Assembly (NCBI GenBank): GCA_965116885.1 | Contig: OZ220741.1 | Span: 3,158,932 to 3,222,931 of the forward strand | DNA length: 64,000 nucleotides | Origin: Candidatus Latescibacterota bacterium | GTDB lineage: Bacteria > Latescibacterota > UBA2968 | Direction: 5' to 3' | Shown: one piece after another, positions 1-46,355 of the stretch | How positions within the stretch are numbered: position 1 is the stretch's first letter | Layout: each line of letters begins with the position of its first letter | Made by a program: the position numbers and the translations under genes | Notes under the pieces: generated by a model | What the model saw: only the letters and a program-made list of their open reading frames with translations | What the model was told of the DNA's origin: nothing | Database searches by the model: none

Positions 1-677
1 GCGATCTCAATGACCGCATAGATGTCGCGAAATCCGCTACGCGCCTGAGTGTCGTGACTAAGAATGCGTGGTCGCGAGATTTGCGTGAACTCGATAAGCG
101 CGCACAGGTCTGGCTCCAGGCGAATGCACCCGCTTTTGCCAATGAAGCATCGGGTTTGAGCATTGTCTTTGCCCACTTATCTCTACGAAATATCAATAGC
201 ATGTTGCGCGGTACGATCACTGCGATGGCACTTATTTCGTTCATCCTGATCTGGATTTTCAAGAGTGTTCGGGTCGGTCTGCTCAGCTTGTTGCCCAATT
301 TTATCCCCGCAATTATGAGCTTCGGTCTGTGGGGCTATCTCGTCGGTCATGTGGGCATTGCATCTTCGGTGGTGATCGCCGTTGTTTTTGGAATTGTCGT
401 GGATGATACGATTCATTTTTTGAGCAAATATTTGAAGGCCCGGCGCGATGGCCTTCCCGCACCCGAGGCCGTGCGCTATACTTTTAACACGGTGGGCCAT
501 GCGTTATGGACGACGACCGCAGTGTTGTCAGTGGGCTTTCTGGTGTTCGCCACATCGGGATTTGAGGTTAGTTGGGCACTCGGCCTTTTGGTCACGGTTA
601 CGATTGTCTTCGCGCTTGTTGCCGACTTTTTACTTTTGCCAACTCTGCTGATTGCTATTGATCGGAGAAATTCATGA
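1..677 (+). CDS. RND-superfamily exporter (MMPL/HpnN-like), C-terminal part; gene starts upstream of window
   Basis: Frame is open to position 1 and the ORF-track start at 54 is an internal GTG. The product is hydrophobic multi-TM with a GIVVDDTIHF-type motif typical of the RND/MMPL transmembrane domain. Its stop overlaps the next gene's start. Confidence 0.6.
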   Translation, partial: DLNDRIDVAKSATRLSVVTKNAWSRDLRELDKRAQVWLQANAPAFANEASGLSIVFAHLSLRNINSMLRGTITAMALISFILIWIFKSVRVGLLSLLPNFIPAIMSFGLWGYLVGHVGIASSVVIAVVFGIVVDDTIHFLSKYLKARRDGLPAPEAVRYTFNTVGHALWTTTAVLSVGFLVFATSGFEVSWALGLLVTVTIVFALVADFLLLPTLLIAIDRRNS

Positions 678-1483
678 TACCAATACGACCAATACACCTG
701 TTTTTCGCGTTTTGTCCAATTATTTTGTTTTGTCTCGGCGTGTCATCACCCGCTCGTTCCGAAACCGCAGAGGAAACCGGGTTGAAAATCGCTCAGGATT
801 CCCAGGATCGCGAGAAGGGTTTTGGTAATTTTACAGCCCAACAAACCATGGTGTTGCGCAACAAACACGGGCAAGAGAGCCGTCGCCAACTCCGGGTAAA
901 GGTTCTCGAGGTCTCCGAAGATGGCGACAAGAGCCTGTTTGTGTTCGATGAACCGCGCGATGTCAAGGGAACGGCGTTGCTTATTCACGCGCATAGGGAA
1001 AGCGCGGACGACCAATGGCTTTATTTGCCTGCTCTGAAACGCGTCAAGCGCATTAGTTCGTCCAACCAGTCCGGCTCTTTTATGGGAAGTGAATTTGCTT
1101 ATGAGGACCTGACCCCTCAGGCTGTGGAGAAATTTACCTATCGTTACCTGCGCGACGAGGCATATAGCGATTTGACATGCACGGTCTCAGAACGCTTTCC
1201 CGTGGATAAGAAATCGGGCTATAGCCGCCAGGTGGTCTGGAGGGATAAGGACGAACTTCGCGTCTGGAAAGTGGAGTATTACGATCGCAAGAATTCACAT
1301 CTGAAGACGCTTACTCTGGAGAATTACGCGCAGTATCTGGATCGTTACTGGCGCGCTGGGGAGATGACGATGGTCAATCATTTAACCGGGAAAAGTACGG
1401 TTCTGACCTGGACGGATTTTGAGTTTCAGACAGACCTCAATGATCGTGATTTCACACAAACTGGGCTGAAACGGGTGCGTTGA
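674..1483 (+). CDS. LolA-like outer-membrane lipoprotein-sorting family protein (RND-exporter accessory)
   Basis: 269 aa with an N-terminal signal peptide and LolA-like composition. It is translationally coupled to the flanking genes (ATGA overlap at 1480-1483), and this family is frequently encoded next to MMPL-type RND exporters. Confidence 0.45.
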   Translation: MIPIRPIHLFFAFCPIILFCLGVSSPARSETAEETGLKIAQDSQDREKGFGNFTAQQTMVLRNKHGQESRRQLRVKVLEVSEDGDKSLFVFDEPRDVKGTALLIHAHRESADDQWLYLPALKRVKRISSSNQSGSFMGSEFAYEDLTPQAVEKFTYRYLRDEAYSDLTCTVSERFPVDKKSGYSRQVVWRDKDELRVWKVEYYDRKNSHLKTLTLENYAQYLDRYWRAGEMTMVNHLTGKSTVLTWTDFEFQTDLNDRDFTQTGLKRVR

Positions 1484-2751
1484 TGTTACGTCGTACCGCT
1501 CTTCATATTTTAACTTTCGACGCTGTCTGGATTTTGTCCCTGGTCTTTGCCATTAGCGCAGGTGCCGAAATTGGGATTGACCGCGATTTTTCCGGGCGCG
1601 TGAATATCGAAAGCCGATGGTTTCCCCAAGCCGGTGCCTTTTCCGGCCAGGGGGCTCATGCCATCGGTTTTTTTGTGGAACCCAAACTCTATCTTGCAGA
1701 CGCTAAGGGTCGAAGCCTCACGCTATCGCCGTTCTTTCGCTACGACAATGCGGACTCACGCCGCACCCATGCCGATCTGCGCGAAGCCTATTTTCTGATA
1801 TTCGGCGAGATCGGCGATGGTGAATGGGAGTTGCGCGTGGGTATTGACCAGGTTTTCTGGGGCGTTACGGAATCGCAACATCTGGTCGATATTGTCAATC
1901 AGATCGATCTGGTTGAACATCCAAATGGAGAGACAAAGCTGGGACAACCGATGGTGAATATCACCTATTCCAGCGATTGGGGGATAGTGGAGTTTTTTGT
2001 TTTGCCGTATCACCGGGTGCGCACGTTTCCGGGGCAATCTGGCCGCCTGCGCCTTCCGCTCGTGGTGGAAGATGAGCAGGTCGAGTACGAGAGCGAAGGG
2101 GGGGAGTGGCATCTGGATTTCGCAGCCCGGTACAGTCAAAGTTTTGGGGTTGTCGATGTTGGCCTGAGTGTGTTCAACGGTACCAGCCGGGAGCCTTTTC
2201 TAATGCCGGGTTCGGACCGTAGTGGTGCGCCGGTATTGGTTCAGCACTACGATCAGATCCGTCAGTTTGGGCTGGATGCGCAACTCACTGTTGGCTCGTG
2301 GTTGTTCAAGCTCGAGGCTATTCAGCGTGCTGGTGCTCGCAATCTGCTCGGGATAAAAGAAGATTATGTGGCTTCCGTTTTTGGCGGCGAATACGCGTTT
2401 TATTCCGTCTTTGGCTCTGCAGTTGATGTCAGCTTGCTCGGCGAATGGAATTACGATGGGCGAGGGCGAAATGCGACGCCGAGTCGCTCGCCCAATACGC
2501 TCGAAAACGACTTCTTTTTTGCTACGCGCCTCGCGTTCAACGATGTTCAGAGTACTGAAATTGTCGCCAGTATTCTGGGAGATGTAGATCGCGCGACACG
2601 CGCACTATCTATGGAATTGGATCGACGCATCTCAGATCTGTTGTCTTTAAACCTGGAGGCGATTCACCTTCTCAGTATTGATAAAGCGGATATCCACTAC
2701 GATACGCGGCGCGATAGTTTTATTGATCTGAGGCTGATTTACCATTTTTAG
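1480..2751 (+). CDS. Predicted outer-membrane beta-barrel/porin-like hypothetical protein (third gene of the RND exporter module)
   Basis: 423 aa with a signal peptide, alternating amphipathic beta-strand-like segments and an aromatic C-terminus (…IYHF). It is coupled to the upstream gene. Confidence 0.35.
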   Translation: MMLRRTALHILTFDAVWILSLVFAISAGAEIGIDRDFSGRVNIESRWFPQAGAFSGQGAHAIGFFVEPKLYLADAKGRSLTLSPFFRYDNADSRRTHADLREAYFLIFGEIGDGEWELRVGIDQVFWGVTESQHLVDIVNQIDLVEHPNGETKLGQPMVNITYSSDWGIVEFFVLPYHRVRTFPGQSGRLRLPLVVEDEQVEYESEGGEWHLDFAARYSQSFGVVDVGLSVFNGTSREPFLMPGSDRSGAPVLVQHYDQIRQFGLDAQLTVGSWLFKLEAIQRAGARNLLGIKEDYVASVFGGEYAFYSVFGSAVDVSLLGEWNYDGRGRNATPSRSPNTLENDFFFATRLAFNDVQSTEIVASILGDVDRATRALSMELDRRISDLLSLNLEAIHLLSIDKADIHYDTRRDSFIDLRLIYHF

Positions 2752-2752
2752 T

Positions 2753-2862
2753 TATTGCACAATCTCTAATTAAAAAACAACCCCACCCGGAATACCCTGG
2801 CGGGGTTGTTTGGTTGTATGAAGAAGCGATCACATTACCACAGGTGACATACCCGGTTCGCC
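2753..2862. repeat. Repeat copy A: ~110-bp element with a GC-rich hairpin (caaccccacc…ggcggggttg) flanked by an A-tract and a T-tract, so a bidirectional intrinsic terminator, plus a conserved 3' segment caccacaggtgacatacccggttcgcc
   Basis: It aligns at about 85% identity in the same orientation with 10203..10317. It sits between convergent gene ends (stop at 2751 on plus, stop at 2920 on minus). Confidence 0.6.
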
Positions 2863-2919: not shown

Positions 2920-4347
2920 TTACGCGTGACGCTTTGACACGGTCATGGGAACGGGAGCTTTCACCATGGAAAGCAGGAAGAGAGCGCTGACCCGTTCCTT
3001 GAGCGGACCGGGAGAGACAGTATCAAGTCGCAACCGCTGGGCGGTGCTCGCCAAAAAATAAACGCAGACGCGCATGGCAAATTCCCTTCCTGTACATTGG
3101 CGGGTATCATAACCGAACGGCATGTAGGCACACGGAGGGCGCTCCGGCTGTGGGTCCTTCAGCCAGCGCTCTGGCCGAAATTCTTCGGGTTGATCCCAAT
3201 ATTGCGGGTTCCGATTGTGGGCGTCTATAACGCTCAACACCATCGTCCCTTTGGGAATACTATAGCCACCGAGATCATAATCCTGCCTTGTGACCCGGTT
3301 CAGCACAGGTGCGGGAGCCCCAAGTCGCAGAGTCTCTGACATAATGGCCCTGGTATAGGAGAGCTTATCATAATCTTCGACCATGATCTGACGATCACCC
3401 AGGACATCATCGACCTCCTCTTCCAAACGCCTGCGCACTTCGGGATAATAGGCGATGTGGCCCACCGCCTTCGTGAGCGCAATCAGCGTTGGATCGATCG
3501 GAATCGTGATGTTTTCGACCAGCAGATCGTGAACCTCAAGGTCGCTGAGAAGTCCCTCTCCATCCTCCCTGGTATTCGCATCTATCAGACGCGAAGCCAT
3601 GCTGTAGGGGGCATGGGACCCATTGCGGACTTGTTCGATGGTCTTGTAGATCAAGGCACTCAATTCCCAGAACGATTTTTTGGAACTTCTGCTCCTTGGC
3701 AGGGGGAACTTTCTAAGCAGCGATGTGCCCGGAAGAGCGCAGAGTATCATGTCCTGCTTGTATCCCTCCATCGCATCCACGACGACGCTCGGCCGGATAG
3801 CGTCGAGTGCGTTTCCGAGATTCATGCGAATAACGCAATGCGCCTGGAGATCTCTCAATTCCTTCCAGAGGTGAATCATCTGGCCAGGCTTCCAGCGTGC
3901 GTGCAGTGCCTGGATATTCTCAATGATTCGCGCTGAATGTGCCTCCAGGAACTTACGGTCCAGGAGCCCTGGCCCCATCAGTTTGAGCGACCTTTCGTAA
4001 AACGCATCATCGCTCCCGTTCAGGCCCAAAGTACATTCGACAAAAAGACTCTTCTTTTCCGGGTTCATGTAGTCTATCGGGTTGAACTTGCGAAACGCCT
4101 GTACGGGTGGACCGTCTGGATTGTCTGGATCAGGGATTTTTGCTGTTAAAACTTCGTGTATGAGATCCAGATCATACACGATGCAGTAATTCAGGACCGG
4201 CATCTTGTAGTAGCTGATGTCACCGTATTTCTCGCGAAGCTCTTTCAGAAAACGGGAAAAATCCGACATATGTTTTATCAGATTGTACAGCTTGGGTCCC
4301 CTGGGACCGGGAGGCAATTTTGGGCTTTTTTTGATTGACTTTCGCAT
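2920..4347 (-). CDS. Cytochrome P450 monooxygenase
   Basis: The heme-binding signature PFGYDTRQCTG (FxxGxRxCxG) is present with the cysteine ligand. An N-terminal proline-rich PPGPRGP hinge is present. An SD sequence GAGGAGG lies 8 nt upstream of the ATG. Confidence 0.85.
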   Translation of the reverse strand: MRKSIKKSPKLPPGPRGPKLYNLIKHMSDFSRFLKELREKYGDISYYKMPVLNYCIVYDLDLIHEVLTAKIPDPDNPDGPPVQAFRKFNPIDYMNPEKKSLFVECTLGLNGSDDAFYERSLKLMGPGLLDRKFLEAHSARIIENIQALHARWKPGQMIHLWKELRDLQAHCVIRMNLGNALDAIRPSVVVDAMEGYKQDMILCALPGTSLLRKFPLPRSRSSKKSFWELSALIYKTIEQVRNGSHAPYSMASRLIDANTREDGEGLLSDLEVHDLLVENITIPIDPTLIALTKAVGHIAYYPEVRRRLEEEVDDVLGDRQIMVEDYDKLSYTRAIMSETLRLGAPAPVLNRVTRQDYDLGGYSIPKGTMVLSVIDAHNRNPQYWDQPEEFRPERWLKDPQPERPPCAYMPFGYDTRQCTGREFAMRVCVYFLASTAQRLRLDTVSPGPLKERVSALFLLSMVKAPVPMTVSKRHA

Positions 4348-4395
4348 ACGTCAATCCTCCTCATTTAGATCTATGTCATAGCAATTCAAAAGCTA

Positions 4396-7300
4396 TTAGA
4401 TTTGTGTCGCGTTTGCGCCGGGATGCCCGTTTTTTCGTTCCGAAAAATGGAAATACACCGTGGCCAGTGCGGGCACGATCATCATCAGAATCGCCGTTGC
4501 AAAGACGATTCCAAATCCCACTGACACGCCTAACGGGATTAAAAACTGCGCCTGAATACTTTGCTCGAGGATGAGTGGCGTGAAGCCGAGGAAGGTGGTC
4601 GCCGAGGTCACAAAAATCGGGCGAAAGCGCTCTTTGGCACCATTGATGATCGCATCTTGTATTGATACTTCCTCCTTCAACCGCTCGTTGATGAAATCGA
4701 TCATCACGAGAGAATCATTCACGACGACTCCGCTGAGTCCGATGATTCCCCACATGGACGTAATGCTCAAATCAAGCCCCATGATCAGGTGGCCCAGGAT
4801 GGCGCCGACGAGCCCGAAGGGGATGACGGCCATGATGATGAGGGGTTTGGTGTAGGAACCAAGAGGAATCGCCAGCAACGCATATATCACCAGCAAAGCA
4901 AGGACCAGGCCGCGCCCGAGTGCGTCGAAGGATTCGAGTTGTTGCTGCTGCTCGCCTCCGAACGTATAGGTGAGGCCCGGGTGAATGTTCGCGAGATCAG
5001 GGAGGATCGTACTTGTGAGGATGTTGGTCACCTCCTCCCCCGTGATCACGGCAGGATCTACATCTGCAGTGACGATGACAACGCGCTGGCCGTTTTTCCG
5101 CCGAATTGACGAGGGTGAATCGCTCAAATTTACGGAAGCAACACGGCTCAGAGGCACTTCGGCTCCGGCCGGTGTACGGATCAGATAGCCCTCGACATCA
5201 GCGATTGCGTCTCGTTCCACCGCGGGAAGGCGCACGTACACACGCACATCTTCCTTGCCCCGTTGCACTCGAAGTGCTTCGTTGCCGAAGAACGCAGATC
5301 GCACCTGCCGGGCCAGTCCATCGAGCGTGAGACCGAGCGTTCGTGCTTCTGGCCGCAACTCAAGCTGGATCTCCTGAAGGCCAGCGGCATGATCCGATTG
5401 AACATCGAAGACCCCCTGGAACCCGAGGAGACTTTCCACCACCGCGTCACCGATTGAACCGAGACGATCGGGGTCCGGATGGGAAAGCTCGATCTGGACA
5501 GAAGAGCCTAAGTCGATCAGATCTGCGGAGAACGTGAGGCTGCGAGCTACTGGTACAATGCCGACCTCTTCCCGCCATGCCTGTAGAAAGTCGCCCGAGG
5601 TAATATCCCTCCGCTCAGTTGGCTGCAGCTTGAACTCCACAGCGGCGATATGGGCCTGCGGCTTCAGGCTGGGTTCCTGTGCGATGCCTCCTCCGACCAT
5701 CTGAGGTCTTGCGCCGACGGTCAAGTTCACCCCGACCACCAGCGGCTCGACATTCTCGGGCTGTCCTGCAGACAGCCGATTGATGGCCCGATGTCCCGCA
5801 GCTTCGATTTCCCTGGCCAGTCCGCCAGTCCGCTGAGCTAGCGTTCCTTCCGGCATTTCGAGGTTGGCCGTCACGATGTCGGCCTCAACAGGTTCGTTCA
5901 AGATCATTCCAATGATTCCCGCGGGGATCAGGGCGACGCAGAGAATGATCATTCCTACGCCACTTGCGATCACCACGGCAGGTTGGCCTGTAGCCAGCCG
6001 TAGTATCCGGTCCAGGGGGCCTGCCACGAAGCGCTTCAACTCCCTATCCACGCGGTATTGGATGCGAGAGAAGAAGCGATCGAAGGGGTTGTTCGGTTTC
6101 CACTCAGGACCTGGCAAGTGGGACAAGTGATTTGGCAAGATCAACAGTGATTCCATCAGGGAAATCAAGAGTACGGTGATCAAGATCACCGGAACCGGAC
6201 CCATCATACGTCCGATTGGCCCGGGTAGGAAAAGGAGAGGTGTGAAAGCAGCCACTGTCGTGAGGACTGCGAAGATCACAGGTCCCTTGATCCGTTGGGT
6301 ACCGCGGATCGCCGCGAGGACCCCTGCCGTGCCCTTCTGCCGTTCGGCATGGATATACTCGGCCACGACGATGGCGTCATCCACCACGATGCCAACTGCG
6401 AGAATGAAAGCGAATAGGGAGATCGTGTTGATGGAGACATTGAGGATCAGCATGACTGCCAACGCGCCAACAAAGGAAATGCCAATTCCGGCGGCGACCC
6501 ACAGGGCAAGCCGAATTTGTAGAAAGAGGGTTAGAGATACGAGGACAAGCATCAGCCCCAGAAAGCCGTTTTTGAGGAGCAGGTTGAGTCGGTCCTCGTA
6601 GATATCCGCGTCGTTATTCCAGATCTCTATCGTTACACCAGTGGGAAGCGAGGGGATCACGTACAGGTGCAAGTGTTCTTCTATGGCCTCCACGACATCC
6701 AGCACTTGTTCCCCTTCGGACCGGTACACCTCCACGAACGCGGCTCGCTGCCCGTTGTAGCGGGTGATCATATCTATATCCTGGAAGCCATCGCGCACTT
6801 TGGCGATGTCGCCCAGACGAACCAGCGTACCGTCATCCCGGCTCAAGACTACGATATCCTCAAAATCCTGCTGGTCATAGTTCCGGCCCGTAGTTCGGAC
6901 CCGCACTTCTGCATCCCTCGTCTCGATTCTGCCGGCTGATAGCTCAAGGGATTCGTTGCGAACTTCCCGCGAAATGTCCTCAAGGGTCAGTCTCAGAGCC
7001 TGCAGCCGGCGGAGAGGCACTTCGATCGAGATCTCGTAGTTGCGTACGCCACTCGTCTCGACATAAGAGACCTCGGAAAGGGAGGAGAATTCGTCCTCAA
7101 TTCGGTGGGCCAGTTCCTTGAGCGTGCGCTCGGATACGTCCCCGTAAAGAACCAGACGCATCACGCTCTGGCGATTAGTCATCTGTCTGATTTCTGGGCG
7201 CTCGGCCCCGATGGGAAAGGTCTGGATTCGGCTGATCGCAGACTCAATATCGTCCAGTGCACGGCTGATGTTTGTGCCGATCTTCAATTCTGCCATGACG

Positions 7301-7602
7301 GATGCGTAGCCCTCCGTCGCGATAGCCGTGACCTCTTTCACTTCTTCAAGTGTTTCGACATGTTCCTCGATCTTGAGGACAATCGACTCTTCCACTTCAT
7401 CCGGGGTGGCGCCGGGGTAGGGCACCGATATCTCGATGTGGTCGAAAGAAAGCACTGGGAACGCTTCCTGCACCAGGCTATTCATCGAGATGAGTCCCGC
7501 CACCAGTATAAAGACCATCAGAAGATTGGCGGCGACGCCGTTCCTGACCATATAAGCTATGAGACCGCGCTGTTCTTGAGCGGAAATGTCGTCCTGGCTC
7601 AC
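4396..7602 (-). CDS. RND multidrug/hydrophobic-compound efflux permease (HAE1, AcrB/AcrD/AcrF family)
   Basis: 1068 aa with 12-TM architecture, two large periplasmic loops and characteristic AcrB-family sequence throughout. Its start overlaps the MFP stop (ATGA). Confidence 0.9.
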   Translation of the reverse strand: MSQDDISAQEQRGLIAYMVRNGVAANLLMVFILVAGLISMNSLVQEAFPVLSFDHIEISVPYPGATPDEVEESIVLKIEEHVETLEEVKEVTAIATEGYASVMAELKIGTNISRALDDIESAISRIQTFPIGAERPEIRQMTNRQSVMRLVLYGDVSERTLKELAHRIEDEFSSLSEVSYVETSGVRNYEISIEVPLRRLQALRLTLEDISREVRNESLELSAGRIETRDAEVRVRTTGRNYDQQDFEDIVVLSRDDGTLVRLGDIAKVRDGFQDIDMITRYNGQRAAFVEVYRSEGEQVLDVVEAIEEHLHLYVIPSLPTGVTIEIWNNDADIYEDRLNLLLKNGFLGLMLVLVSLTLFLQIRLALWVAAGIGISFVGALAVMLILNVSINTISLFAFILAVGIVVDDAIVVAEYIHAERQKGTAGVLAAIRGTQRIKGPVIFAVLTTVAAFTPLLFLPGPIGRMMGPVPVILITVLLISLMESLLILPNHLSHLPGPEWKPNNPFDRFFSRIQYRVDRELKRFVAGPLDRILRLATGQPAVVIASGVGMIILCVALIPAGIIGMILNEPVEADIVTANLEMPEGTLAQRTGGLAREIEAAGHRAINRLSAGQPENVEPLVVGVNLTVGARPQMVGGGIAQEPSLKPQAHIAAVEFKLQPTERRDITSGDFLQAWREEVGIVPVARSLTFSADLIDLGSSVQIELSHPDPDRLGSIGDAVVESLLGFQGVFDVQSDHAAGLQEIQLELRPEARTLGLTLDGLARQVRSAFFGNEALRVQRGKEDVRVYVRLPAVERDAIADVEGYLIRTPAGAEVPLSRVASVNLSDSPSSIRRKNGQRVVIVTADVDPAVITGEEVTNILTSTILPDLANIHPGLTYTFGGEQQQQLESFDALGRGLVLALLVIYALLAIPLGSYTKPLIIMAVIPFGLVGAILGHLIMGLDLSITSMWGIIGLSGVVVNDSLVMIDFINERLKEEVSIQDAIINGAKERFRPIFVTSATTFLGFTPLILEQSIQAQFLIPLGVSVGFGIVFATAILMMIVPALATVYFHFSERKNGHPGANATQI

Positions 7603-8792
7603 GGATCTCCTCCATCCGCAATTCGCACCGACATGCCTTCCGTGGCGATCTGAATCCCACCCACGACGACAGGTTGGCCCGCTTCGAGTGCTCCGATCAC
7701 GAATACCTCATCGCCGGAACGTTGTAGGATGCGTACCGGGACTATAGTCACAGTGCTATTGCGTATCGCCCAGACTTCGTTGCCAGTCCTGAGCGCCGGG
7801 GGAGGCACTCTGTAATACCTATCTGGAGCGATTCCCTGAATTTGCACTTCCACGAACTTACCCACGAGAAGAGGCGGGACAGAACCCATGTCTGCCGCCT
7901 CGACCTGGGTCCCGCTCGTGAAAGGATCCGGAACGCGCACGATTACGTCGATGGTCCGCGTCTGTTTGTCCAGGGATGCCTCCGCCCGATCCACATAGCC
8001 TTTCCAGGCGTAGCTTCTATTACCGTATTCAGCTATGACACGAGCCTTGACCCGCCTATCTCCGTCGCCCGCTTCCAGCTTCCAAAGGTCGGGAATAAGG
8101 GCCGTATTGGCATCGGAGAGGGGAACCACCACCTCTACTGTATTGGTCGCATAAAGTCGCCCTACACTCTGACCGGCTACCACAAACTGCCCCATATCTA
8201 TCGATTCTGCCTGCACGACACCTCTGAAAGGCGCGCGGACTTTTGTGCGTGCCAAAGCCAACTCGGCATCGGCGAGCACAGCACTATCTCTCGCCACTGC
8301 GGCTCGGGCTGCCTCGAGCTGAGGCTCCCATAATGCAAGGGGATTGGCCTTGGCTATATCCGTTTGGCTGCGTCTGAATTGGGCGTACTCAGCGCGTGCG
8401 ATCTGGGCTTCTTCATTCGTCCGGAGGAGTGCGACATGCTGTGCGACCACGTTGGCGCGGGCTTGCTTTACTCTGTTGCGGTAGTCGGCGTCATTGATGC
8501 GAAAGAGAATTTGTCCCTTGCGGACTCGTCCACCGCTCTGAAAGGTAGGAGCGACCCAGATAATCTTACCGTTGATTTCGGCGGCGACATCTATCTCTGC
8601 GACGGGCCGAACCGTTCCTGCCCCGTACACAGGGATGGCACCGGTACCGGCTATTACGGGAGTTGTGACTGCGAAGGGAATTTGGGAGGGAAGAGGCCGG
8701 AGTTCTGGCTCGGGCCTTAACCAGACCATAAACCCGGCAAAAAACAGGGATATGAGGAGGATAGCACCGGCCGGGAACAAGCGTCGATTCAT
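7599..8792 (-). CDS. RND efflux periplasmic adaptor subunit (MFP/HlyD family)
   Basis: 397 aa with a single N-terminal TM anchor, a coiled-coil hairpin region and beta-barrel/lipoyl-like segments. It is translationally coupled to the RND pump. Confidence 0.8.
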   Translation of the reverse strand: MNRRLFPAGAILLISLFFAGFMVWLRPEPELRPLPSQIPFAVTTPVIAGTGAIPVYGAGTVRPVAEIDVAAEINGKIIWVAPTFQSGGRVRKGQILFRINDADYRNRVKQARANVVAQHVALLRTNEEAQIARAEYAQFRRSQTDIAKANPLALWEPQLEAARAAVARDSAVLADAELALARTKVRAPFRGVVQAESIDMGQFVVAGQSVGRLYATNTVEVVVPLSDANTALIPDLWKLEAGDGDRRVKARVIAEYGNRSYAWKGYVDRAEASLDKQTRTIDVIVRVPDPFTSGTQVEAADMGSVPPLLVGKFVEVQIQGIAPDRYYRVPPPALRTGNEVWAIRNSTVTIVPVRILQRSGDEVFVIGALEAGQPVVVGGIQIATEGMSVRIADGGDP

Positions 8793-8826
8793 CTCTTATC
8801 TCTCTTGGCTCATAGCGGTCGATGGG

Positions 8827-10005
8827 CTACCATTCTTGCGTTTCATCTTCGTCGTGGAGTGCCGTCGGTAGCTTGTATGAAATTTCATACTTGCCCAAAT
8901 TCGACGTTTTCAGGATGATGTCGAAATGGGTGAAATCATGATGGTGAAACCAGCGCAGGTATAGCTTCTGAAGTACCCGCTCTACACGGTACTTTAATCG
9001 CATAAACGGAAGTATCCGAATTCGTTTCCCAGCTGGGAACCTGAATAAATCGGCCATATAGTTGCCGATTAACTCCCGGGATACTTGATAAAACGACTCT
9101 GCTTTCGCGCCGCGCTCCCTGGGTTCAGTGAATCCCAATACGATGGGTGCACTATTGATAATGCTATTTGCCATGATGATTTCATCGTCCTCCGGCAGAG
9201 GTTCGCATAATACTCCGATCACAAACGCTCGGCAGGCCGATGCTTCGTCGTGGAACATGATTGCATCGGGTATCCCCATGACCAACCCGGCATATCTCCA
9301 GACGTGAACGTAGGCTTCGCGTTCCTTTGCATTGAAGTCGCCGCCAAGGCGTTCGACGTGCTGCATGAGACGTCCGGAGAAGGCTGCGGCCCCGAGCAAC
9401 ATATGCGCTGCACTGAGCGGCATTCCATACGTTGTCTCGTCCCATTCATCCGAGTCCTTAATCAGCCTTCTCGACTGTGCATGCACAAGGCGGATTCGAA
9501 GATTCAGTTTCCAACCATCGCCTCCGGGATACAGTCCACCAGGTATAAACTGTTCCAATAGATGCAGGTTATTTTGCTTGAGCCGGCGAACGCCGTGTCC
9601 GATGATTCGGCCCCTGATGAGAAACGACTTGCTGATTAACGTGGAAAAACCCTCTACGATGGCACCGGTTGCCAGGCCTGCCAGAATTATTTCCGGGTTG
9701 CGAAGAAATGCCTCAGTGGCTATCAGGGCAATGTCTTGATCAAACCAGTCTGGGATGACTGCCGCCTCGGCGATGAGCGTTCTCAGAGATTCGGGCGTGT
9801 TTTTCGGCAGATTTTCATGATTATTAAGTGCCGCGCTTATGATCCTGTTTATTTGTTCAGGGGGGGTACTCTCCACTAGTTCCTCAACCACCCGATCCGC
9901 CAAAGGATCCCCGACAGTCGTATGGCGGATATAGGCCTCCGCGAACTCGGGATCTCTACGCCGGGCCGCATTGTATCCATTGACATAAGATGCTGGAATT
10001 TCCAT
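8827..10005 (-). CDS. Hypothetical soluble protein; possibly a DUF2236/MpaB-like (heme oxygenase-type) protein, a low-confidence assignment
   Basis: 392 aa, no TM or signal, and first gene of the minus-strand operon, 34 bp upstream of the MFP. The family call rests only on length, composition and conserved His/Arg positions and is not verified. Confidence 0.3.
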   Translation of the reverse strand: MEIPASYVNGYNAARRRDPEFAEAYIRHTTVGDPLADRVVEELVESTPPEQINRIISAALNNHENLPKNTPESLRTLIAEAAVIPDWFDQDIALIATEAFLRNPEIILAGLATGAIVEGFSTLISKSFLIRGRIIGHGVRRLKQNNLHLLEQFIPGGLYPGGDGWKLNLRIRLVHAQSRRLIKDSDEWDETTYGMPLSAAHMLLGAAAFSGRLMQHVERLGGDFNAKEREAYVHVWRYAGLVMGIPDAIMFHDEASACRAFVIGVLCEPLPEDDEIIMANSIINSAPIVLGFTEPRERGAKAESFYQVSRELIGNYMADLFRFPAGKRIRILPFMRLKYRVERVLQKLYLRWFHHHDFTHFDIILKTSNLGKYEISYKLPTALHDEDETQEW

Positions 10006-10202
10006 TTCGATTTTTTAGTCTATCTTTCTAATGTCTTTTGGTTGTATGATTTTGGAATTTACTGCCATTAATAATTATACTCAAAATAGACGATATATAG
10101 CCCTAAAGACGATATATAAACCCAAAATATATCATTATTAGTCTAAAAGATCAATTCTAAAAAAATCAGGTCTCATTTTCCCTTATGAGAGAAGATCAAG
10201 TC
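10006..10202 (-). promoter_or_regulatory. AT-rich (about 30% GC) upstream region of the oxygenase-like/MFP/RND/P450 operon containing a tandem direct repeat agacgatatata (10088..10099 and 10107..10118, 19-bp spacing)
   Basis: Base composition contrasts sharply with the ~50% GC surroundings. The exact 12-bp direct repeats resemble tandem transcription-factor half-sites. The region lies immediately upstream of the operon's first start codon. Confidence 0.3.
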
Positions 10203-10317
10203 CTGCACAATCTACAATTACATTAAAAACACCCCCGCCCAGAATGGCCAGGCGGGGGTTTGTTTGGTTGTATAAAAGGGGCGATTACGTCACCACAGGT
10301 GACATACCCGGTTCGCC
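10203..10317. repeat. Repeat copy B: paralogous ~115-bp element with hairpin acccccgcc…ggcgggggt, A/T flanks and the same 3' segment caccacaggtgacatacccggttcgcc
   Basis: It aligns with 2753..2862 in direct orientation. Its 3' part forms the last ~11 codons (…AGEPGMSPVVT) of the minus-strand sulfatase at 10285..11604, and the hairpin with T-tract lies just downstream of that gene's stop. Confidence 0.6.
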
Positions 10318-11604
10318 CGCGTGGTATGACGCCAGGCACCAGGGGTCTCGGGTTTCTTTGCGGAAGGTGCGAACTTTTTGTCGCATGACTTCGGCGATGT
10401 CCTGAACCTCCGGGTCGTCGATGATGTTGGTGGATTCCATGGGATCATTTTCGATATCGAAAAGGGCTTCTGCATCCTGGTGCAAAAATTTTTCCGTGCG
10501 GCGTTTGCCCATTTCCAAATTTTCTCTGCGGATGGCCTGCCAGGTGGGCGAGGCCCACAGGTCACTGGGCAAAGGGGTGGTGATTTCGGGATAGAGATTG
10601 CGCACGTATTTGTATTTGCGTCCACGCAGTACCCGATAGGGGTAGTAATTGGTGACTTCGTGGAAGGTGTGGGAAAAGAAGGTTTCGTCAAATCCCTCGG
10701 GATGTGCTTCGCCGAGGATGGGGACGAGGGATTTTTCAGGTAGCCCTTCGGGAGCTTCAACGCCACACCATTCAAAGACGGTGGGGGCGATGTTGTTCCA
10801 GTTGACGAGGGCGTCGCTGACAACAGCTGCGGCATCTGGGCGCGCAATGATGAGCGGACAGTGGTGACCCGTGTCAAAAGAAGAGGCTTTGCCGCCGGGA
10901 AAGGGCATGCCGTGATCGCTCATGACGATGATCAGGGTATCCTCGGCACGACCAGCGTCTTGAAGTGCCTGCACAGCCATGCCTATGCCGGTGTCGAGGC
11001 GAGAGACGGATTGGTAGTATTCGGCAAATTCTCGTCGAACATCTGGATGGTCGGGCAAAAAGTCGGGAACGATGACTTCGTCTGGGGAGTATGTGACTTC
11101 GGGAACGCCGGGATAGGTTTGTTTGTTGCCGAAGTCACGGTGAGGATCGGAATAACCGACGTGTAGATAGAATGGCTGGTCGCTGTCAATGGTTTCAAAG
11201 AATTTTGAGATGTTGTCTGCAATACCGCGCACATTGCGCCCACCACCAGCTTCGTAGTTCCAGGGATAGACAGATTCGGGTTGGACGTGGAGTTTGCCGA
11301 CAACGCCGGTTGTGAATCCGGCGGATTGTAGGGTTTTGGGAATTGACGGCATGTTGAGTTGTGTGTGGAAGTTGTGGATGCTATGCGAGTGACCGTATTG
11401 TCCGTGCGTGTGGCTGTAGTGCCCGGTGAGCAGGTTGGCGCGGCTGGCCGCACACGATGGGGTGGTGCAAAAGGCGTGCTTAAATAAGGTGCCCCGCGCG
11501 GCAAGGGCATCTACGCTGGGCATTTTGATAATATTATTGCCATAACATCCGGCAATGGGACTCCAATCGTCGGCAATGAGTAAGAGGACGTTGCGATAGG
11601 ACAT
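10285..11604 (-). CDS. Sulfatase (alkaline-phosphatase superfamily, arylsulfatase-like) with non-canonical active-site motif
   Basis: The N-terminus begins NVLLLIADD, matching the sulfatase metal-binding start. The active-site region is FCTTPSCAASRANLLTGH, where the CxPxR position reads C-A-A-S-R. No signal peptide is present. Confidence 0.85.
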   Translation of the reverse strand: MSYRNVLLLIADDWSPIAGCYGNNIIKMPSVDALAARGTLFKHAFCTTPSCAASRANLLTGHYSHTHGQYGHSHSIHNFHTQLNMPSIPKTLQSAGFTTGVVGKLHVQPESVYPWNYEAGGGRNVRGIADNISKFFETIDSDQPFYLHVGYSDPHRDFGNKQTYPGVPEVTYSPDEVIVPDFLPDHPDVRREFAEYYQSVSRLDTGIGMAVQALQDAGRAEDTLIIVMSDHGMPFPGGKASSFDTGHHCPLIIARPDAAAVVSDALVNWNNIAPTVFEWCGVEAPEGLPEKSLVPILGEAHPEGFDETFFSHTFHEVTNYYPYRVLRGRKYKYVRNLYPEITTPLPSDLWASPTWQAIRRENLEMGKRRTEKFLHQDAEALFDIENDPMESTNIIDDPEVQDIAEVMRQKVRTFRKETRDPWCLASYHAGEPGMSPVVT

Positions 11605-26550: not shown

Positions 26551-27900
26551 CTAAGCGCATTCAGCGCACATTTTGTCGCATCGTCGTCTCAGTCGGTTGA
26601 GTTGATCTGAGGATCTGGGATCTCTCGCGAGATTAAAGGATTCGTGGGGGTCCTTGCGGAGATCGTAGAGTTCCTCATAGACGGGCTGTTGCTCGTAGTA
26701 GCGAATGTATTTCCAGCGTTTTGTGCGTATGCCTTCGCTCTTGGGGATGTCGGCACGATGGAACCGGTGTTCGCAGAAGAACGCTTTTCGCCAGTCAACT
26801 TTCTCGTCGCGCAACAATGGAACAAGAGATTTGCCCTGCATTTTGTCCGAGGCGTCCAGATTCGCCAGTTCGAGGATGGTTGGTGCGATATCGATGTTTA
26901 GTGCTAATTCTTCGCGGATGAGACTCCGGTTGTCCTCGGCATCTCTTGGATCGAAGACAATAAGGGGAATGCGGATCGACTGTTCGTTCAACTGCCAGCA
27001 GTCGCTGAGTCCGCGATCTCCATAGTACATCCCATGGTCAGATGCGAAGATTACGACTGTGTTGTCGGATAATGACAGTTGATCCATCGCCTCGAGAATC
27101 CTGCCGATGTTCCGATCCACACCGCTCACCATTCGGTACAGCCCTCGCATGTTTCTCTGATAGTCCTCAGATGTCGAATAGCGCTTTTGCCATCGTGCGC
27201 GACTTTCCGTTTCGCGAAGAAATTTTGGCAACTGTCGGAAAAAGTCGGGATGGGCGTTGAATGGCTCTGGTATTTGCGTCTCTGTGTAGAGGGGATTTTC
27301 TGTAGCGGGCCAAATGTAGTAGCGCGGATCATTGTCCTGCGCGTGCGGCGCGTTGAAACTGATGGAGAGACAAAATGGCTGGCCGGGATAATCTGATTGA
27401 TGTGTGCGTAGGAAGTCGATCGTTTTGTCCCCTGTAATGTCGGTCAGGTGGCGCACACTGCCATCGGGCTGTCTGATTTCATACCCTTCTTCAGTCCAGT
27501 GTTCGTAGTTTTCGAATACGTCAAACATCTTTTCCACTGTATCCTCGTCCTGCAGAGAAGGGGCGATTCCGTTGGTGGCAATGCCGAATTTGCCGATTAG
27601 CCCTGTGCGATAACCCGCCATTTTAAGAGTAGCAGGGTAGGAGATGTCGGTGTATGCGCTTTGAAGGGGTGGTGTGAGGAAGGTGAATCGGTGGCGTTTT
27701 TCATAGGTGCCCGTGAGATAGCTGGCCCGGCTTGCGGCGCAGATTGGACTTGTGCAGAATGCGTTTTCGAACCGCACACCGCTTGCGGCAAGCCGATCTA
27801 TGTTTGGGGTTTTGATGATTGGATTGCCAGCGCAGCCGAGCAGGTCATTGCGCTGGTTGTCGGTCAGGAGGAAGAGGATGTTCGGAGGAGGTGCCCTCAC
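26551..27900 (-). CDS. Sulfatase (arylsulfatase-like) with non-canonical C-A-A-S-R active-site motif
   Basis: ILFLLTDNQRND is followed by FCTSPICAASRASYLTG. There is no signal peptide. The start overlaps the stop of the upstream Gfo/Idh/MocA gene. Confidence 0.85.
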   Translation of the reverse strand: MRAPPPNILFLLTDNQRNDLLGCAGNPIIKTPNIDRLAASGVRFENAFCTSPICAASRASYLTGTYEKRHRFTFLTPPLQSAYTDISYPATLKMAGYRTGLIGKFGIATNGIAPSLQDEDTVEKMFDVFENYEHWTEEGYEIRQPDGSVRHLTDITGDKTIDFLRTHQSDYPGQPFCLSISFNAPHAQDNDPRYYIWPATENPLYTETQIPEPFNAHPDFFRQLPKFLRETESRARWQKRYSTSEDYQRNMRGLYRMVSGVDRNIGRILEAMDQLSLSDNTVVIFASDHGMYYGDRGLSDCWQLNEQSIRIPLIVFDPRDAEDNRSLIREELALNIDIAPTILELANLDASDKMQGKSLVPLLRDEKVDWRKAFFCEHRFHRADIPKSEGIRTKRWKYIRYYEQQPVYEELYDLRKDPHESFNLARDPRSSDQLNRLRRRCDKMCAECA

Positions 27901-28967
27901 ATCTCACTCAATTCAATGCGTTGACCGGTGTCATTTGACCTGTATGCCGCTTCAATGATCCTGGCGACTTTTAAGGCGTCTTCTCCAGAGGTTGGGGCCG
28001 TACCTTTACCGGCAGTAGATCGAATAAAGTCATCTAAAAAAGCGATTCCATAAGCCCCGCCATAAGCATCGACTTCGGGTAGCGTGTAATCAAAGGTTCG
28101 CTGAGATGCCGTGTGCCAGCCTTCTGCAACGCTTTCGAGATACAATTCTGAGGGACCGCCCGAGGGCGTCCAGAACACGCGGCCCTCGTGACCGCGAAAT
28201 CCCATATACGTATCGTAATTCGGCCCCATATAACCCGCGCCACTTATTGATAGTTGATAACCGGCTTGCATGCTGCCCAGCGCGCCATTGGAAAACCGAA
28301 AGGATAGAGACGCCACATCTTCTACATCGATGTCTTCGCCGCTGAGTGTATCGACAACGGCAGAAACGGAGACGATGTCCGCATCCATGACATAGCACAG
28401 CAGGTCGATATAATGACACCCCAGCCACGACAAAATGCCGCCGCCAGAAATCGACCGATCAAATAGCCAGTGTTTGGGGTTGCGAAATTTTACCTGTGAT
28501 GTGACCATCCGGGACTCACAAGATGTCACCTGACCTATTGCACCGCCTTGCACGAGTCTTCGCGCTTCACAAGCGGTGGGGTGATAGCGATTCTGATACA
28601 TAACGCCCAGTTGTACGCCCGCTTTTGCGGCGCCATCCACGACCCGAGAAACAGTGGCAACCGAAGCACCGATGGGTTTTTCACTGATGACGTGAATGCC
28701 CTGCTCGAACAAGCGGAGACAAAGGTCGGGATTCTGGTCGTTTTGGGCGCAGGCTACACCAAAGGCTATATTTTTAGTGCCTAAAAGTACGCTGAGATCG
28801 GAATAAGTACCTGCGACTTTATCTGTTGAATTAAAGCTGTTCAGAGCCGAGGGGTCGGTGTCATACAGAATAATTTCATCTACCAGTGTAGAAGCCTGCA
28901 AGGTCTTGAAATGGGCTTCTGAATGGGGATGTGTCAGGCCAAATAAGCCAGCGCGAACGGGTTGCAT
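27897..28967 (-). CDS. Gfo/Idh/MocA family NAD(P)-dependent oxidoreductase
   Basis: The N-terminal Rossmann fold GLFGLTHPHSEAH… and the C-terminal Gfo/Idh/MocA alpha/beta domain are present. The start was chosen at MQPVRAG, with an AGAGGA SD. Confidence 0.8.
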   Translation of the reverse strand: MQPVRAGLFGLTHPHSEAHFKTLQASTLVDEIILYDTDPSALNSFNSTDKVAGTYSDLSVLLGTKNIAFGVACAQNDQNPDLCLRLFEQGIHVISEKPIGASVATVSRVVDGAAKAGVQLGVMYQNRYHPTACEARRLVQGGAIGQVTSCESRMVTSQVKFRNPKHWLFDRSISGGGILSWLGCHYIDLLCYVMDADIVSVSAVVDTLSGEDIDVEDVASLSFRFSNGALGSMQAGYQLSISGAGYMGPNYDTYMGFRGHEGRVFWTPSGGPSELYLESVAEGWHTASQRTFDYTLPEVDAYGGAYGIAFLDDFIRSTAGKGTAPTSGEDALKVARIIEAAYRSNDTGQRIELSEM

Positions 28968-28978
28968 TAGATTATCCT

Positions 28979-29788
28979 CTATAAATATGGCAGTACTTCG
29001 CGCTTGAGCGCGTTGAGATATGTCCATTCTTCACCGGGGTCCTGGAAGATCAATGTGTAATATCCCGAGAAATTGGCTTTGCGCGTCAAGTCCAGACAGG
29101 TGAGGAATTGGTCTCGCAACATGATCCCATCTTCGTAATCCGCTTTGGTATGGATCGTATCTGCGAATGGCAAAACTTTTGTGAGGTCGCCCAGCTTGTG
29201 TTCCCCTTTGAAGTTGCCAAAATCAGTACACAGTCCGATTTTTCCCTCGCATTTGTCCAAAATATCCAGCAGAGGAGCCGCGCGCTGGGTCAGCCGTTTG
29301 AAATTCTCGGTCATGACACGTATGCCACAATCGCGCGCATAGTCCGACAATTGCAGGAGATTTTGCGCGCTGAGTGCTATGGATTCCGGATCTGGATCTG
29401 CTTCGCCGGCGATTACGCGCACATTCGCTGCGCCACAGGCAGATGCGATGTCGATCCATCTTCGAATTTCTGCCAAATCCTTTTCCCTCTGTTCGGGATC
29501 GGGATGTGTAATATCCCAGGCGTCGATCAAGATGCTGTAAAGCGATACGCCGTGTCTGTCCAGTTCTGAGCGCAGGTCTGCTATAAATGCATCATCTGTT
29601 GTGGGAAAATGAAAATGGCAGATTTCCAAATGTCCAATGCCATGCGATGCTATTTCGCGGGGAACATTGAGTAGCTGTATGCGTCCCCCATGGCCATTTC
29701 GGTTCACAAATCCATCGGGCGTGCGATCGTACCACGCCTTGCCCAATGCGCGGTGTAAACTCCAGGTGGAAATAGATAATTCTGGCAT
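28979..29788 (-). CDS. Xylose-isomerase-like TIM-barrel protein (sugar phosphate isomerase/epimerase family)
   Basis: The 269-aa length and AP-endonuclease-2/xylose-isomerase-like TIM-barrel signature regions (…HLEICHFHFP…, …GLCTDFGNF…) fit this family. Confidence 0.75.
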   Translation of the reverse strand: MPELSISTWSLHRALGKAWYDRTPDGFVNRNGHGGRIQLLNVPREIASHGIGHLEICHFHFPTTDDAFIADLRSELDRHGVSLYSILIDAWDITHPDPEQREKDLAEIRRWIDIASACGAANVRVIAGEADPDPESIALSAQNLLQLSDYARDCGIRVMTENFKRLTQRAAPLLDILDKCEGKIGLCTDFGNFKGEHKLGDLTKVLPFADTIHTKADYEDGIMLRDQFLTCLDLTRKANFSGYYTLIFQDPGEEWTYLNALKREVLPYL

Positions 29789-40807: not shown

Positions 40808-41911
40808 TTAGTCCAGGTTGTAGAGTTCCCGGGCATTCTCTCCCATAATTTGTTTTTTAACGTCTTGATCCGATACATGGCTCAGTGCCTGGTCGGGCGA
40901 ATCAAAGTCCCAGTGCGGATAATCGGTCGCAAACATCAGTTTATTGTCCATGTCCATGTGCGCCAGCATCTGCTCGAAATACGCCGGGTCTGAAGGTTCT
41001 TCTACGGGCTGTGTGGTCAGATAGAAATGATCCCGGATATATTCTGAGGGCAGGCGCTTTAAATAGGGCACTTCCATCTTGAGTTTTCGGTACCAGTTGT
41101 CCATTCGCCACATCAAAGGTGCGACCCATCCGAAACCGCCTTCGATTAGAACGATTTTTAAGCCGGGAAATTGCTCAAAAACGCCTTCGTACACATAGCT
41201 CGTTACCTGTGCCTGAAACGCCATGGGCATCCCCCCGTGGTCCTGAATATAATGCGCCGCCTTGCCCGCGCCCGTAATCGGGCCAATACCCGTGCCACCA
41301 AAGTGAATGCCGATGGGGAGGTCGTAGTCAACGGCTGCCTCGTAAATTTTCCAGTATTTACGGCGGCCCAGTGGCTCCATTGTGCGGGCCATGAACATCA
41401 GTTGTACAAATCCCGGGTGATCGCCCAGGCGTTCAATTTCAGCGACGGCGAGATCGGCGTCTTCATACGCGACAGTTAGGGATGCGCGCAATCGCTCATC
41501 TTTTTCCAGCCATTCTGCTATTTGCCATTCATTAACCGCTTGTGCAATCGCCGCTCCGTATTCCAGGTTTTGCTGTCCTCCAGCAGGCGATAGCGGGTTC
41601 AATATGCCGTAGTCCATTTCCCAGGTGTCCAGCAATTGTTCCTGCATAAAGCCCAGATGCGACCCAGGGGGTCCTTCGGGGGGGAATGCATCGTTTCGCG
41701 CTGCAAAGGGCACAGCTCTCGGACAATTGGACCCGGATCGTCTGCGCCCTGCAATGCTCAAATGATAATCCTTCCAGGCACTGGGCATATAATCTACCCA
41801 GACCTCAGTGGCGGGGGATTGGTATCCATCTACATTGTGAATATCGCAATCGATTACCGATAGCTTTTCTCTTTTTTTGATCTCTGGCTTTTCTAAAAGC
41901 GTCATTGCCAT
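40808..41911 (-). CDS. Amidohydrolase-2 family (COG2159/ACMSD-like) metal-dependent hydrolase, possible sugar lactonase
   Basis: The metal-binding HxH is represented by VIDCDIHN. The FATDYPHWDF C-terminal motif is typical of Amidohydro_2. Confidence 0.7.
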   Translation of the reverse strand: MAMTLLEKPEIKKREKLSVIDCDIHNVDGYQSPATEVWVDYMPSAWKDYHLSIAGRRRSGSNCPRAVPFAARNDAFPPEGPPGSHLGFMQEQLLDTWEMDYGILNPLSPAGGQQNLEYGAAIAQAVNEWQIAEWLEKDERLRASLTVAYEDADLAVAEIERLGDHPGFVQLMFMARTMEPLGRRKYWKIYEAAVDYDLPIGIHFGGTGIGPITGAGKAAHYIQDHGGMPMAFQAQVTSYVYEGVFEQFPGLKIVLIEGGFGWVAPLMWRMDNWYRKLKMEVPYLKRLPSEYIRDHFYLTTQPVEEPSDPAYFEQMLAHMDMDNKLMFATDYPHWDFDSPDQALSHVSDQDVKKQIMGENARELYNLD

Positions 41912-41923
41912 AGCGATATCTCC

Positions 41924-42991: not shown

Positions 42992-43012
42992 ATTTTTCTC
43001 TTCGGGATGTGA

Positions 43013-44683: not shown

Positions 44684-44795
44684 AATAAGTTGCTATTGGG
44701 AAAAATGCAAGGCTAAGGAACAATTCCGACTTGTGCGATACGGAATCCCACTTTATCATGGTCTCTACTATTGCCAATCTTATGCAAAGGAGAAA

Positions 44796-46331: not shown

Positions 46332-46355
46332 GTTCAACCTCTACAGGAGATTCCA

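Follow-up and report, generated by a model that had tools for sequence, protein, structure and literature searches.

Why should genes for a haem oxygenase, an efflux pump and a cytochrome P450 lie side by side on one strand, and what kind of substrate could link them? This question is raised by four genes at positions 2920-10005, minus strand, of a 64-kb stretch of contig OZ220741.1 (GenBank assembly GCA_965116885.1, positions 3,158,932 to 3,222,931), which we refer to in its full length of 64,000 nucleotides as the window. Our analysis showed that the four genes are intact and encode, in order of reading, an MpaB/Lcp-family haem oxygenase, the adaptor and the AcrB-type permease of a resistance-nodulation-division (RND) pump, and a P450, and that the same gene set, to judge from homology searches, recurs in uncultured marine bacteria of several phyla. 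All of the parts come from known families; what is new is their fixed, uncharacterised combination. As our leading but still tentative reading, we propose that the unit is the core of a pathway that would cleave, oxidise and export a lipophilic isoprenoid, most likely squalene-like or polyprenyl, and that this isoprenoid would most likely be made by the cell itself or by its community. In the direction of reading, the unit and its borders are:

10204-10317, minus strand: direct repeat copy A, comprising the last ~30 nt of the upstream sulfatase open reading frame (stop at 10285) and an intrinsic terminator.
10006-10203, minus strand: AT-rich leader/promoter region, ~29% GC, with sigma-70-like hexamers and a tandem repeat.
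8827-10005, minus strand: MpaB/Lcp-family (DUF2236) haem oxygenase, 392 aa; MPAB_Lcp_cat (Pfam), 55.8 bits, cut-off 23.
7599-8792, minus strand: RND periplasmic adaptor (membrane-fusion protein), 397 aa; TIGR01730 (NCBIfam), 147.6 bits, cut-off 94.9.
4396-7602, minus strand: HAE1/AcrB-type RND permease, 1068 aa; ACR_tran (Pfam), 530 bits, full length.
2920-4347, minus strand: cytochrome P450, 475 aa; p450 (Pfam), 188 bits.
2756-2862, minus strand: direct repeat copy B, starting ~58 nt past the P450 stop codon (2920).

The junctions within the unit are short. Read from the sequence, the MpaB and adaptor genes are separated by 34 nt, the adaptor stop and the permease start (a GTG codon) overlap by 4 nt, and the P450 gene follows directly downstream of the RND pump after 48 nt, with a GAGGAGG ribosome-binding site at 4362-4356, 8 nt 5' of its ATG. 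The original prediction had described just such a series of four co-directional genes, and the one junction to be corrected is the overlap, which it gave as ATGA and which reads GTGA. It had also placed the unit between two paralogous repeat elements, and the direct repeats of copies A and B, ~110 nt each and ~88% identical, do mark its upstream and downstream boundaries; they are the sole copies in the window, where none would be expected by chance. Copy A carries a hairpin at 10259-10231 followed by a U run (12-bp stem with 9 GC pairs; fold -46 kcal/mol, z -3.4) and copy B ends in a terminator-like GC-rich hairpin of 12 pairs followed by UUUUUU. A scan of the window against Rfam gave no match, which means that the flanking repeat belongs to no known RNA family. 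The cassette measures ~7.45 kb and consists of a terminator, the AT-rich leader, the four genes and a second terminator.

The leader is as AT-rich as had been predicted (28.6% GC at 10006-10215, compared to 50.9% for the window) and contains a sigma-70-like -35 TTGATC and -10 TATATT with an upstream TG at 10154-10126. Since promoter-like hexamers occur at chance frequency in the whole region, we regard the promoter as no more than a suggestion. Just downstream of the hexamers, at 10088-10125, is a tandem 19-nt direct repeat (AGACGATATATAGCCCTAA and AGACGATATATAAACCCAA on the plus strand), which may be an operator for an unlinked regulator. From the terminators in the flanking repeats, the leader with its promoter-like hexamers and the short or overlapping internal junctions, we infer that the four genes are co-transcribed as one unit. 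All four are under purifying selection, with ratios of nonsynonymous to synonymous substitution (dN/dS) of 0.09-0.28, the lowest being the 0.09 of the MpaB gene, relative to a 95%-identical sister strain that itself has no outer-membrane gene in its cluster. The GC content of the unit, overall and at third codon positions, is within the range of the other genes of the window, and composition therefore gives no support either way for recent transfer.

The inclusion of the last ~30 nt of the sulfatase reading frame in the repeats resembles the footprint of an insertion or recombination at the 3' end of a gene; between the repeats there is no integrase or transposase. The sulfatase itself is an intact protein of 439 aa in the window (10285-11604) and is reduced to a 106-aa Sulfatase_C remnant in the sister strain (contig L086, 1944-2264), showing that the region directly upstream of the cassette varies among close strains.

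How far the linkage of these genes is conserved was examined in relatives mapped by tblastn and from precomputed Pfam contexts. MpaB genes at least 50% identical to that of the window, dereplicated at 90% identity, formed 26 groups, and the neighbours counted within 8 kb of them were:

P450: 23/26 groups.
Orthologous RND permease: 20/26 groups.
Adaptor: 15/26 groups.
Outer-membrane efflux protein (OEP): 11/26 groups.
SQS_PSY: 10/26 groups.
Glutathione S-transferase (GST): 6/26 groups.
Sulfotransferase: 5/26 groups.
SRPBCC: 3/26 groups.

Further loci were ascertained through MpaB instead of P450, to avoid ascertainment bias, and showed the same neighbours as the P450-ascertained ones. Conversely, around every P450 orthologue of 46-58% identity whose context was examined, the MpaB, adaptor and RND genes are present as well. 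In a tblastn map of 80 genome loci, the set recurs in metagenome-assembled genomes (MAGs) labelled Vicinamibacterales, Thermoanaerobaculia, Holophagales, Candidatus Multivorans, Gemmatimonadota and Longimicrobiales, with MpaB proteins 56-62% and RND proteins 55-70% identical to those of the window and one to five P450s alongside. The P450 usually comes directly after the RND gene on the same strand, with a gap of 0-76 nt or, in the relative L101, an overlap of 4 nt, and the linkage on which the original prediction depended is thus one that the relatives keep. At L103 (15985-21212) and L104 (13418-18645), several TIR/ThsB-domain genes resembling Thoeris defence lie beside an MpaB-P450 cluster in a contig labelled Gammaproteobacteria.

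The first gene had been taken, without verification, for a possible DUF2236/MpaB-type oxygenase, and this assignment is upheld by family, sequence and fold. Its 392-aa product matches PF09995 with an E-value of 8.9e-15 and the rubber oxygenase LcpK30 (5O1L/5O1M) with a phmmer E-value of 8e-12, or about 1e-11, and an hhalign probability of 98.3%. Its AlphaFold2 model (pLDDT 88.8, pTM 0.89) has an all-helical globin-like fold, and the top Foldseek matches in the PDB are the same two LcpK30 structures (TM 0.66-0.70, probability 1.0, ~370 columns). The next fold match after Lcp is the t-anethole oxygenase 8S1J, an enzyme which, as its name suggests, cleaves a C=C bond. The proximal haem ligand of LcpK30, His198, is 100% conserved in DUF2236 (PMC6311187); both phmmer and hhalign align it to His175 of the MpaB protein, which is invariant in 36 homologues and is presumed to be the proximal ligand here. 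Arg164 and Thr168 are conserved near the distal haem face of Lcp (PMC6311187), and the MpaB homologues share an invariant GVRRLKQN motif (138-145). In an ungapped register counted from the His, the invariant Arg141 would correspond to Arg164, being 34 residues before the His as in Lcp, and the invariant Asn145 to Thr168, with phmmer and hhalign differing in their gap placement; Pro160, Gly162, Arg172 and Val174 also match Lcp in this register. By spacing, the invariant Gln144 takes the position of the distal ligand Lys167, and the catalytic base Glu148 is aligned to Ser125 or Ser127. The N-terminus, MEIPASYVNGYNAARRRDPEFAEAY, has no hydrophobic h-region when read by eye (no predictor was used), and an N-terminus of this kind is conserved in the consensus of the homologues. 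The lack of a signal peptide indicates that the protein is cytoplasmic and not a rubber oxygenase. On these alignments and models, we consider it a true Lcp homologue and a cytoplasmic member of the MpaB/Lcp superfamily, within a branch of more than 120 clusters (at the 90% identity level) that are 57-64% identical to it.

The RND permease is complete, matching PF00873 over residues 15-1046 of 1068, and carries what reads as a TM4-like motif with the Asp-Asp proton relay (GIVVDDAIVV). Its nearest relatives of solved structure are MdtB, MexB and AcrB (E 1e-54 to 1e-66), and the adaptor has an N-terminal hydrophobic anchor. The prediction that the pump lacks an outer-membrane factor was correct for this locus, as tblastn found no OEP/TolC-like gene in the unit or in the 64-kb window, but not for the system, as 11 of the 26 groups of relatives encode an OEP in the cluster. 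In the closest differently arranged relative, L003 (RND 80% and MpaB 69% identical), the order is MpaB, OEP, adaptor, RND, P450, and the OEP gene sits exactly where the window has the 34-nt gap between MpaB and adaptor. Other clusters without an OEP in the available sequence are L088 (a short contig), L090/L091 and L105/L106. The presence of the gene in so many relatives makes its absence here a lineage-specific loss rather than a design feature: the pump is of the ordinary tripartite type, its linked OEP has been lost in this lineage, and the pump presumably works with an OEP encoded elsewhere, in the way that AcrAB works with TolC.

A monoderm host was considered as a cause of the missing OEP, a near-identical RND being found on a contig labelled Dehalococcoidia, and was rejected, as the COX1 of the window points to Latescibacterota and the window also encodes envelope proteins of LolA-like and DUF1302 type. 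The COX1 protein (61727-63358) is 83% identical to Candidatus Latescibacteria proteins and ~73% to Acidobacteriota proteins. Latescibacterota have an outer membrane, and the LolA-like and DUF1302 envelope genes agree with such a host, which is probably a marine member of this phylum. The RND and P450 of the Dehalococcoidia-labelled contig (MCY4653726.1, 4.5 kb) cluster with those of the window at 90% identity, and the contig has probably been mis-binned in the public record.

The P450 is a soluble protein, with no hydrophobic anchor in its N-terminus (MRKSIKKSPKLPPGPRGPKL; start MRKSIKKSPKLPPGPRGP). A eukaryote-like PPGPRGP hinge without a membrane anchor had been singled out as a feature of this gene; both aspects are indeed present, and P12, P13 and G14 are invariant in orthologues, but the LPPGP motif occurs throughout this bacterial P450 clan and the hinge is nothing special to this gene. 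The model (pLDDT 89) has the P450 fold, and the haem-ligand Cys418 in FGYDTRQCTG and the ExxR pair E338/R341 are invariant in orthologues. The I-helix is where the protein departs from the norm: the canonical (A/G)G-x-(D/E)-T acid-alcohol pair was not found in it, and in its place stands I-x-I-D-P, with Pro286 at the Thr position. In profile alignments, Asp285-Pro286 corresponds to the Glu-Thr of CYP170A1 (GSET) and to Glu308-Thr309 of CYP3A4, and among the orthologues Asp285 is invariant and Pro286 nearly so. Among the 116 P450s in the loci that we fetched, all those near an MpaB or RND orthologue have D-P, D-x-P, E-P-P or G-P there. Some ~55 cluster-associated P450s share this loss of the threonine; relatives from soil Acidobacteriota and Streptomyces found in the same search retain AGHETT. 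CYP74, CYP152 and P450eryF are known examples of P450s that have lost this residue and depart from the usual mode of O2 activation, and the missing threonine suggests that the P450 of the window is probably not on the standard proton-relay route of O2 activation either.

By sequence, the nearest characterised relatives of the P450 are sesquiterpene oxidases, namely CYP170A1 (albaflavenone monooxygenase) and pentalenene oxygenase, and by fold they are CYP184A1, the carotenoid hydroxylase CYP97A3, P450 BM3 and CYP3A. Identity to its relatives of solved structure and in NCBIfam is far below the 40% by which named CYP families are ruled. Identity above 45% is reached by just nine database clusters, all of unnamed metagenomic proteins, and a scan of the GTDB species genomes with a P450 profile yielded no orthologue above 34% identity, with hits that carried MpaB and RND orthologues; the clade is thus known only from metagenome assemblies. 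In a number of loci (L008, L010, L013, L014, L025, L032 and others), two to five paralogous P450s, all threonine-less, stand in an array in which a small SRPBCC/Polyketide_cyc2 gene often comes after each of them; around some of the arrays, the nearest 10 kb contain neither an MpaB nor an RND gene.

What might these proteins act on? The surroundings of the cluster point to isoprenoids. SQS_PSY-family genes adjoin it in the 10 groups counted above, often less than 100 bp from MpaB (e.g. L005, 12703-14810; L105, 11242-13286 and 16343-17392; L101, 1554-2465; and others). They belong to a divergent subfamily, of which a single locus can hold as many as three paralogues (58-75% identity among them), and score far below all NCBIfam equivalog cut-offs for squalene, phytoene and HpnC/HpnD enzymes, their nearest relatives being squalene synthases of eukaryote type (E 1e-16). 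An IspH gene adjoins the cluster in one relative, L005. In the window itself, the four-gene unit lies tail to tail with the end of a second operon:

54-2751, plus strand: tail of the convergent second operon, comprising the three genes below.
54-677, plus strand: C-terminus of an MMPL/HAE3-type RND permease, inside which the window starts; MMPL match.
674-1483, plus strand: LolA-like periplasmic protein; LolA_like, 206 bits, plus DUF1329.
1480-2751, plus strand: DUF1302-like outer-membrane protein, 31 bits against a cut-off of 23.

In the sister strain (L086, 9757-15408) this operon is complete and consists of a second MpaB gene (MpaB2, 44% identical), placed just beyond the point where the window begins, a 760-aa MMPL/HAE3 permease with sterol-sensing-domain similarity, and the LolA-like and DUF1302 genes, with no further gene; the lengths of the last two differ between the window and the sister strain. 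MpaB2-type genes also lie beside AmeD-like permeases in L098. The operon resembles AmeABCD, by which Castellaniella defragrans exports apolar monoterpenes (PMC6394551). Four independent lines of evidence thus support an isoprenoid substrate: the chemistry of the MpaB/Lcp family, the SQS_PSY and IspH neighbours, the nearest relatives of the P450 and the Ame-like neighbouring operon. The oxidation and export of a hydrophobic, isoprenoid-type substrate, one of the two functions envisaged by the original prediction, is supported by the SQS_PSY genes (10/26), IspH and the AmeABCD-like neighbour; its alternative, an import-coupled tailoring, found no support.

In the pathway that we propose, the cytoplasmic MpaB/Lcp-type haem b enzyme would act first on the isoprenoid chain, cleaving one of its trisubstituted C=C bonds with O2 so that aldehyde and ketone fragments result. 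We propose C=C cleavage because it is the reaction of the fold members with which the protein was compared: Lcp, the fungal MpaB' and the more distant t-anethole oxygenase are all haem b-dependent C=C-cleaving oxygenases. The reaction and the defining residues of the Lcp/DUF2236 family are described in PMC6311187, and the reaction of fungal MpaB' in PMC6900556. The soluble P450 would then oxidise or rearrange the substrate or a fragment of it, probably without the standard proton-relay activation of O2. Finally, the amphiphilic product would be collected by the adaptor and the AcrB-type permease, either in the inner membrane or in the periplasm, and expelled through an outer-membrane channel encoded elsewhere in the genome. 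A more specific version of this scheme, which we consider quite unlikely, is that the MpaB dioxygenase and the threonine-less P450 form a two-enzyme cascade on a squalene-like substrate, in which the P450 would have no part in activating O2 and would rearrange or resolve an oxygenated product of the dioxygenase (hydroperoxide, dioxetane or epoxide) before export by the RND pump. This would be analogous to the action of CYP74 on lipoxygenase products, with the substrate supplied by the divergent SQS_PSY enzymes. If true, it would define a new class of secreted 'apo-squalenoid' metabolites with a dedicated RND pump, horizontally shared among marine host-associated bacteria, and a kind of oxygenation cascade not yet described in bacteria.

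Several observations weigh against a pathway that cleaves, oxidises and exports an isoprenoid. Thr168, Lys167 and Glu148 of Lcp appear not to be conserved in the MpaB protein, and its chemistry may for this reason differ from rubber cleavage. No redox partner for the P450 is encoded nearby, and the count of 23/26 for P450 co-occurrence is inflated by the many loci that were ascertained via their P450. The 64-kb window has no SQS_PSY or other isoprenoid-synthesis gene, so that an endogenous precursor is only assumed for this genome, and in most relatives the SQS_PSY genes are transcribed towards the cluster rather than together with it. Lastly, the GST (6/26) and sulfotransferase (5/26) genes of the relatives are a better fit to detoxification than to biosynthesis.

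Detoxification is indeed the alternative that most needs to be weighed: the cluster could be a module for defence against exogenous lipophilic terpenoids from an animal host or neighbouring microbes, a reading that we think possible, if on the unlikely side. The P450 and MpaB would provide phase I of such a module, conjugation by GST and sulfotransferase in the relatives phase II, and the pump phase III, much as AmeABCD protects Castellaniella from monoterpenes. Apart from these conjugating enzymes, it would account for the HAE1 multidrug type of the pump, the tandem arrays of up to five diversified P450s in relatives, the AmeABCD-like operon adjoining the unit and the 16 of 26 relatives, the window included, that have no synthase gene nearby. 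The cluster is moreover common, at 55-70% protein identity, to Latescibacterota-like, Acidobacteriota, Gemmatimonadota, Gammaproteobacteria-labelled and planctomycete-like contigs, which would fit a habitat-driven mobile trait, as would the direct repeats that bracket the unit. The SQS_PSY genes directly at MpaB in 10 of the 26 relatives are left unexplained by this module, however, and the unit has no regulator of the TetR or MarR type that is typical of inducible efflux, nor do genes for catabolic follow-up (aldehyde dehydrogenase, beta-oxidation) recur.

The same SQS_PSY genes, together with IspH, are compatible with an envelope-lipid system, in which the oxygenases would modify an endogenous membrane isoprenoid (of hopanoid, carotenoid or polyprenol type) and the RND systems would move the lipid to the outer membrane instead of exporting it from the cell, much as HpnN does for hopanoids. 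We consider this improbable. It would explain why two RND-superfamily transporters, one of them of HAE3/MMPL type with sterol-sensing-domain similarity and with LolA-like and DUF1302 partners, are each led by an MpaB paralogue, and why the outer-membrane factor gene is dispensable in several lineages. But an AcrB/HAE1 permease with a classical adaptor and, in 11/26 relatives, a TolC-like OEP is an architecture for expulsion across the outer membrane, and cleavage of a C=C bond would destroy rather than tailor a structural lipid. That an ordinary multidrug efflux operon merely happens to stand beside two unrelated oxygenase genes, with no functional coupling, was already disfavoured and is very improbable. 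It is true that RND operons such as acrAB commonly have no linked outer-membrane gene; yet contigs labelled as different phyla keep the four families as neighbours even where gene order and strand have been rearranged, in most relatives the P450 gene overlaps the RND gene or is 0-76 nt away from it, and the pump proteins are specific orthologues at 55-80% identity, not generic paralogues. The cleavage, oxidation and export of an isoprenoid is thus the reading that we prefer, with the tentativeness expressed at the outset.

In the open-access literature and bioRxiv we found no description of an MpaB-RND-P450 cluster, of a large cytoplasmic MpaB branch or of a P450 clade with Asp-Pro in place of the I-helix threonine. 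The characterised members of the MpaB/Lcp family found by our searches are only the rubber oxygenases and one fungal step of prenyl-chain cleavage. The cluster adds to these a large conserved bacterial branch in fixed partnership with RND transporters and non-canonical P450s, which would be of mechanistic interest if they work without the conserved threonine. Terpene clusters are reported to be the most abundant and least understood biosynthetic class in the MAGs of sponge-associated bacteria (PMC11832590). The SQS_PSY-carrying relatives of this cluster probably fall into that class, for which the cluster offers a concrete and testable candidate pathway. The isolate labels of several related MAGs also seem to resemble those of published sponge-microbiome sets. 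For annotation, our results mean that the missing outer-membrane gene should be treated as a lineage-specific loss and that the unit should be read together with the convergent, MpaB-led neighbouring operon. The remainder of the window (26551-29027, 40808-51589, 55061-57607) contains many sulfatases, GFO/IDH/MocA oxidoreductases, a sialate-O-acetylesterase-like gene, an amidohydrolase and a DUF1800/DUF1501 pair, a repertoire that looks suited to the degradation of sulfated glycans.

Among known systems, the MpaB protein is closest to Lcp (LcpK30) and fungal MpaB', being a member of PF09995, the Pfam family of both. It shares with Lcp the globin-like fold with N- and C-terminal helical extensions and the proximal His, and in the ungapped register its invariant Arg would also match one in Lcp, 34 residues before the His. 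At the same time, their identity is ~17-25%, and Lys167, Thr168 and Glu148 of Lcp are by spacing replaced by Gln144, Asn145 and Ser. Lcp is secreted with a Tat signal peptide and acts on extracellular polyisoprene, whereas the protein studied here has neither a Tat nor a Sec signal and is encoded with an efflux pump and a P450, in place of the oxiAB genes that accompany lcp, and with no rubber or polyisoprene context. The P450 resembles the class E 'eukaryote-like' terpenoid and lipid P450s CYP170A1, pentalenene oxygenase, CYP184A1 and CYP97A3 in its Cys-ligand loop, ExxR pair and overall fold (TM 0.73-0.82), and differs from them by an identity of at most ~25-30% and by Pro286 in place of the I-helix Thr.

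The pump follows the plan of AcrAB-TolC, MexAB-OprM and MdtABC, with a full-length AcrB-family permease carrying the Asp-Asp pair in transmembrane segment 4, a translationally coupled adaptor and, in relatives, an OEP gene. Unlike these systems, it is associated with MpaB and P450 genes and has no outer-membrane gene in its operon or in the 64-kb window; its permease scores 444 bits against a cut-off of 1250 for RND_permease_2, far below every named multidrug equivalog cut-off. For AmeABCD, the resemblance lies in the operon on the left flank of the window, which has the HAE3/MMPL permease, the LolA/DUF1329-like periplasmic protein and the DUF1302 outer-membrane protein, and not in the four-gene unit. 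The operon of the sister strain has no AmeC-like gene (COG4447 periplasmic protein) and is led by an MpaB oxygenase, and the Castellaniella island is anaerobic and catabolic, without P450 or MpaB genes. What would be common to both is a terpenoid-linked RND transporter set within a terpene-metabolism locus.

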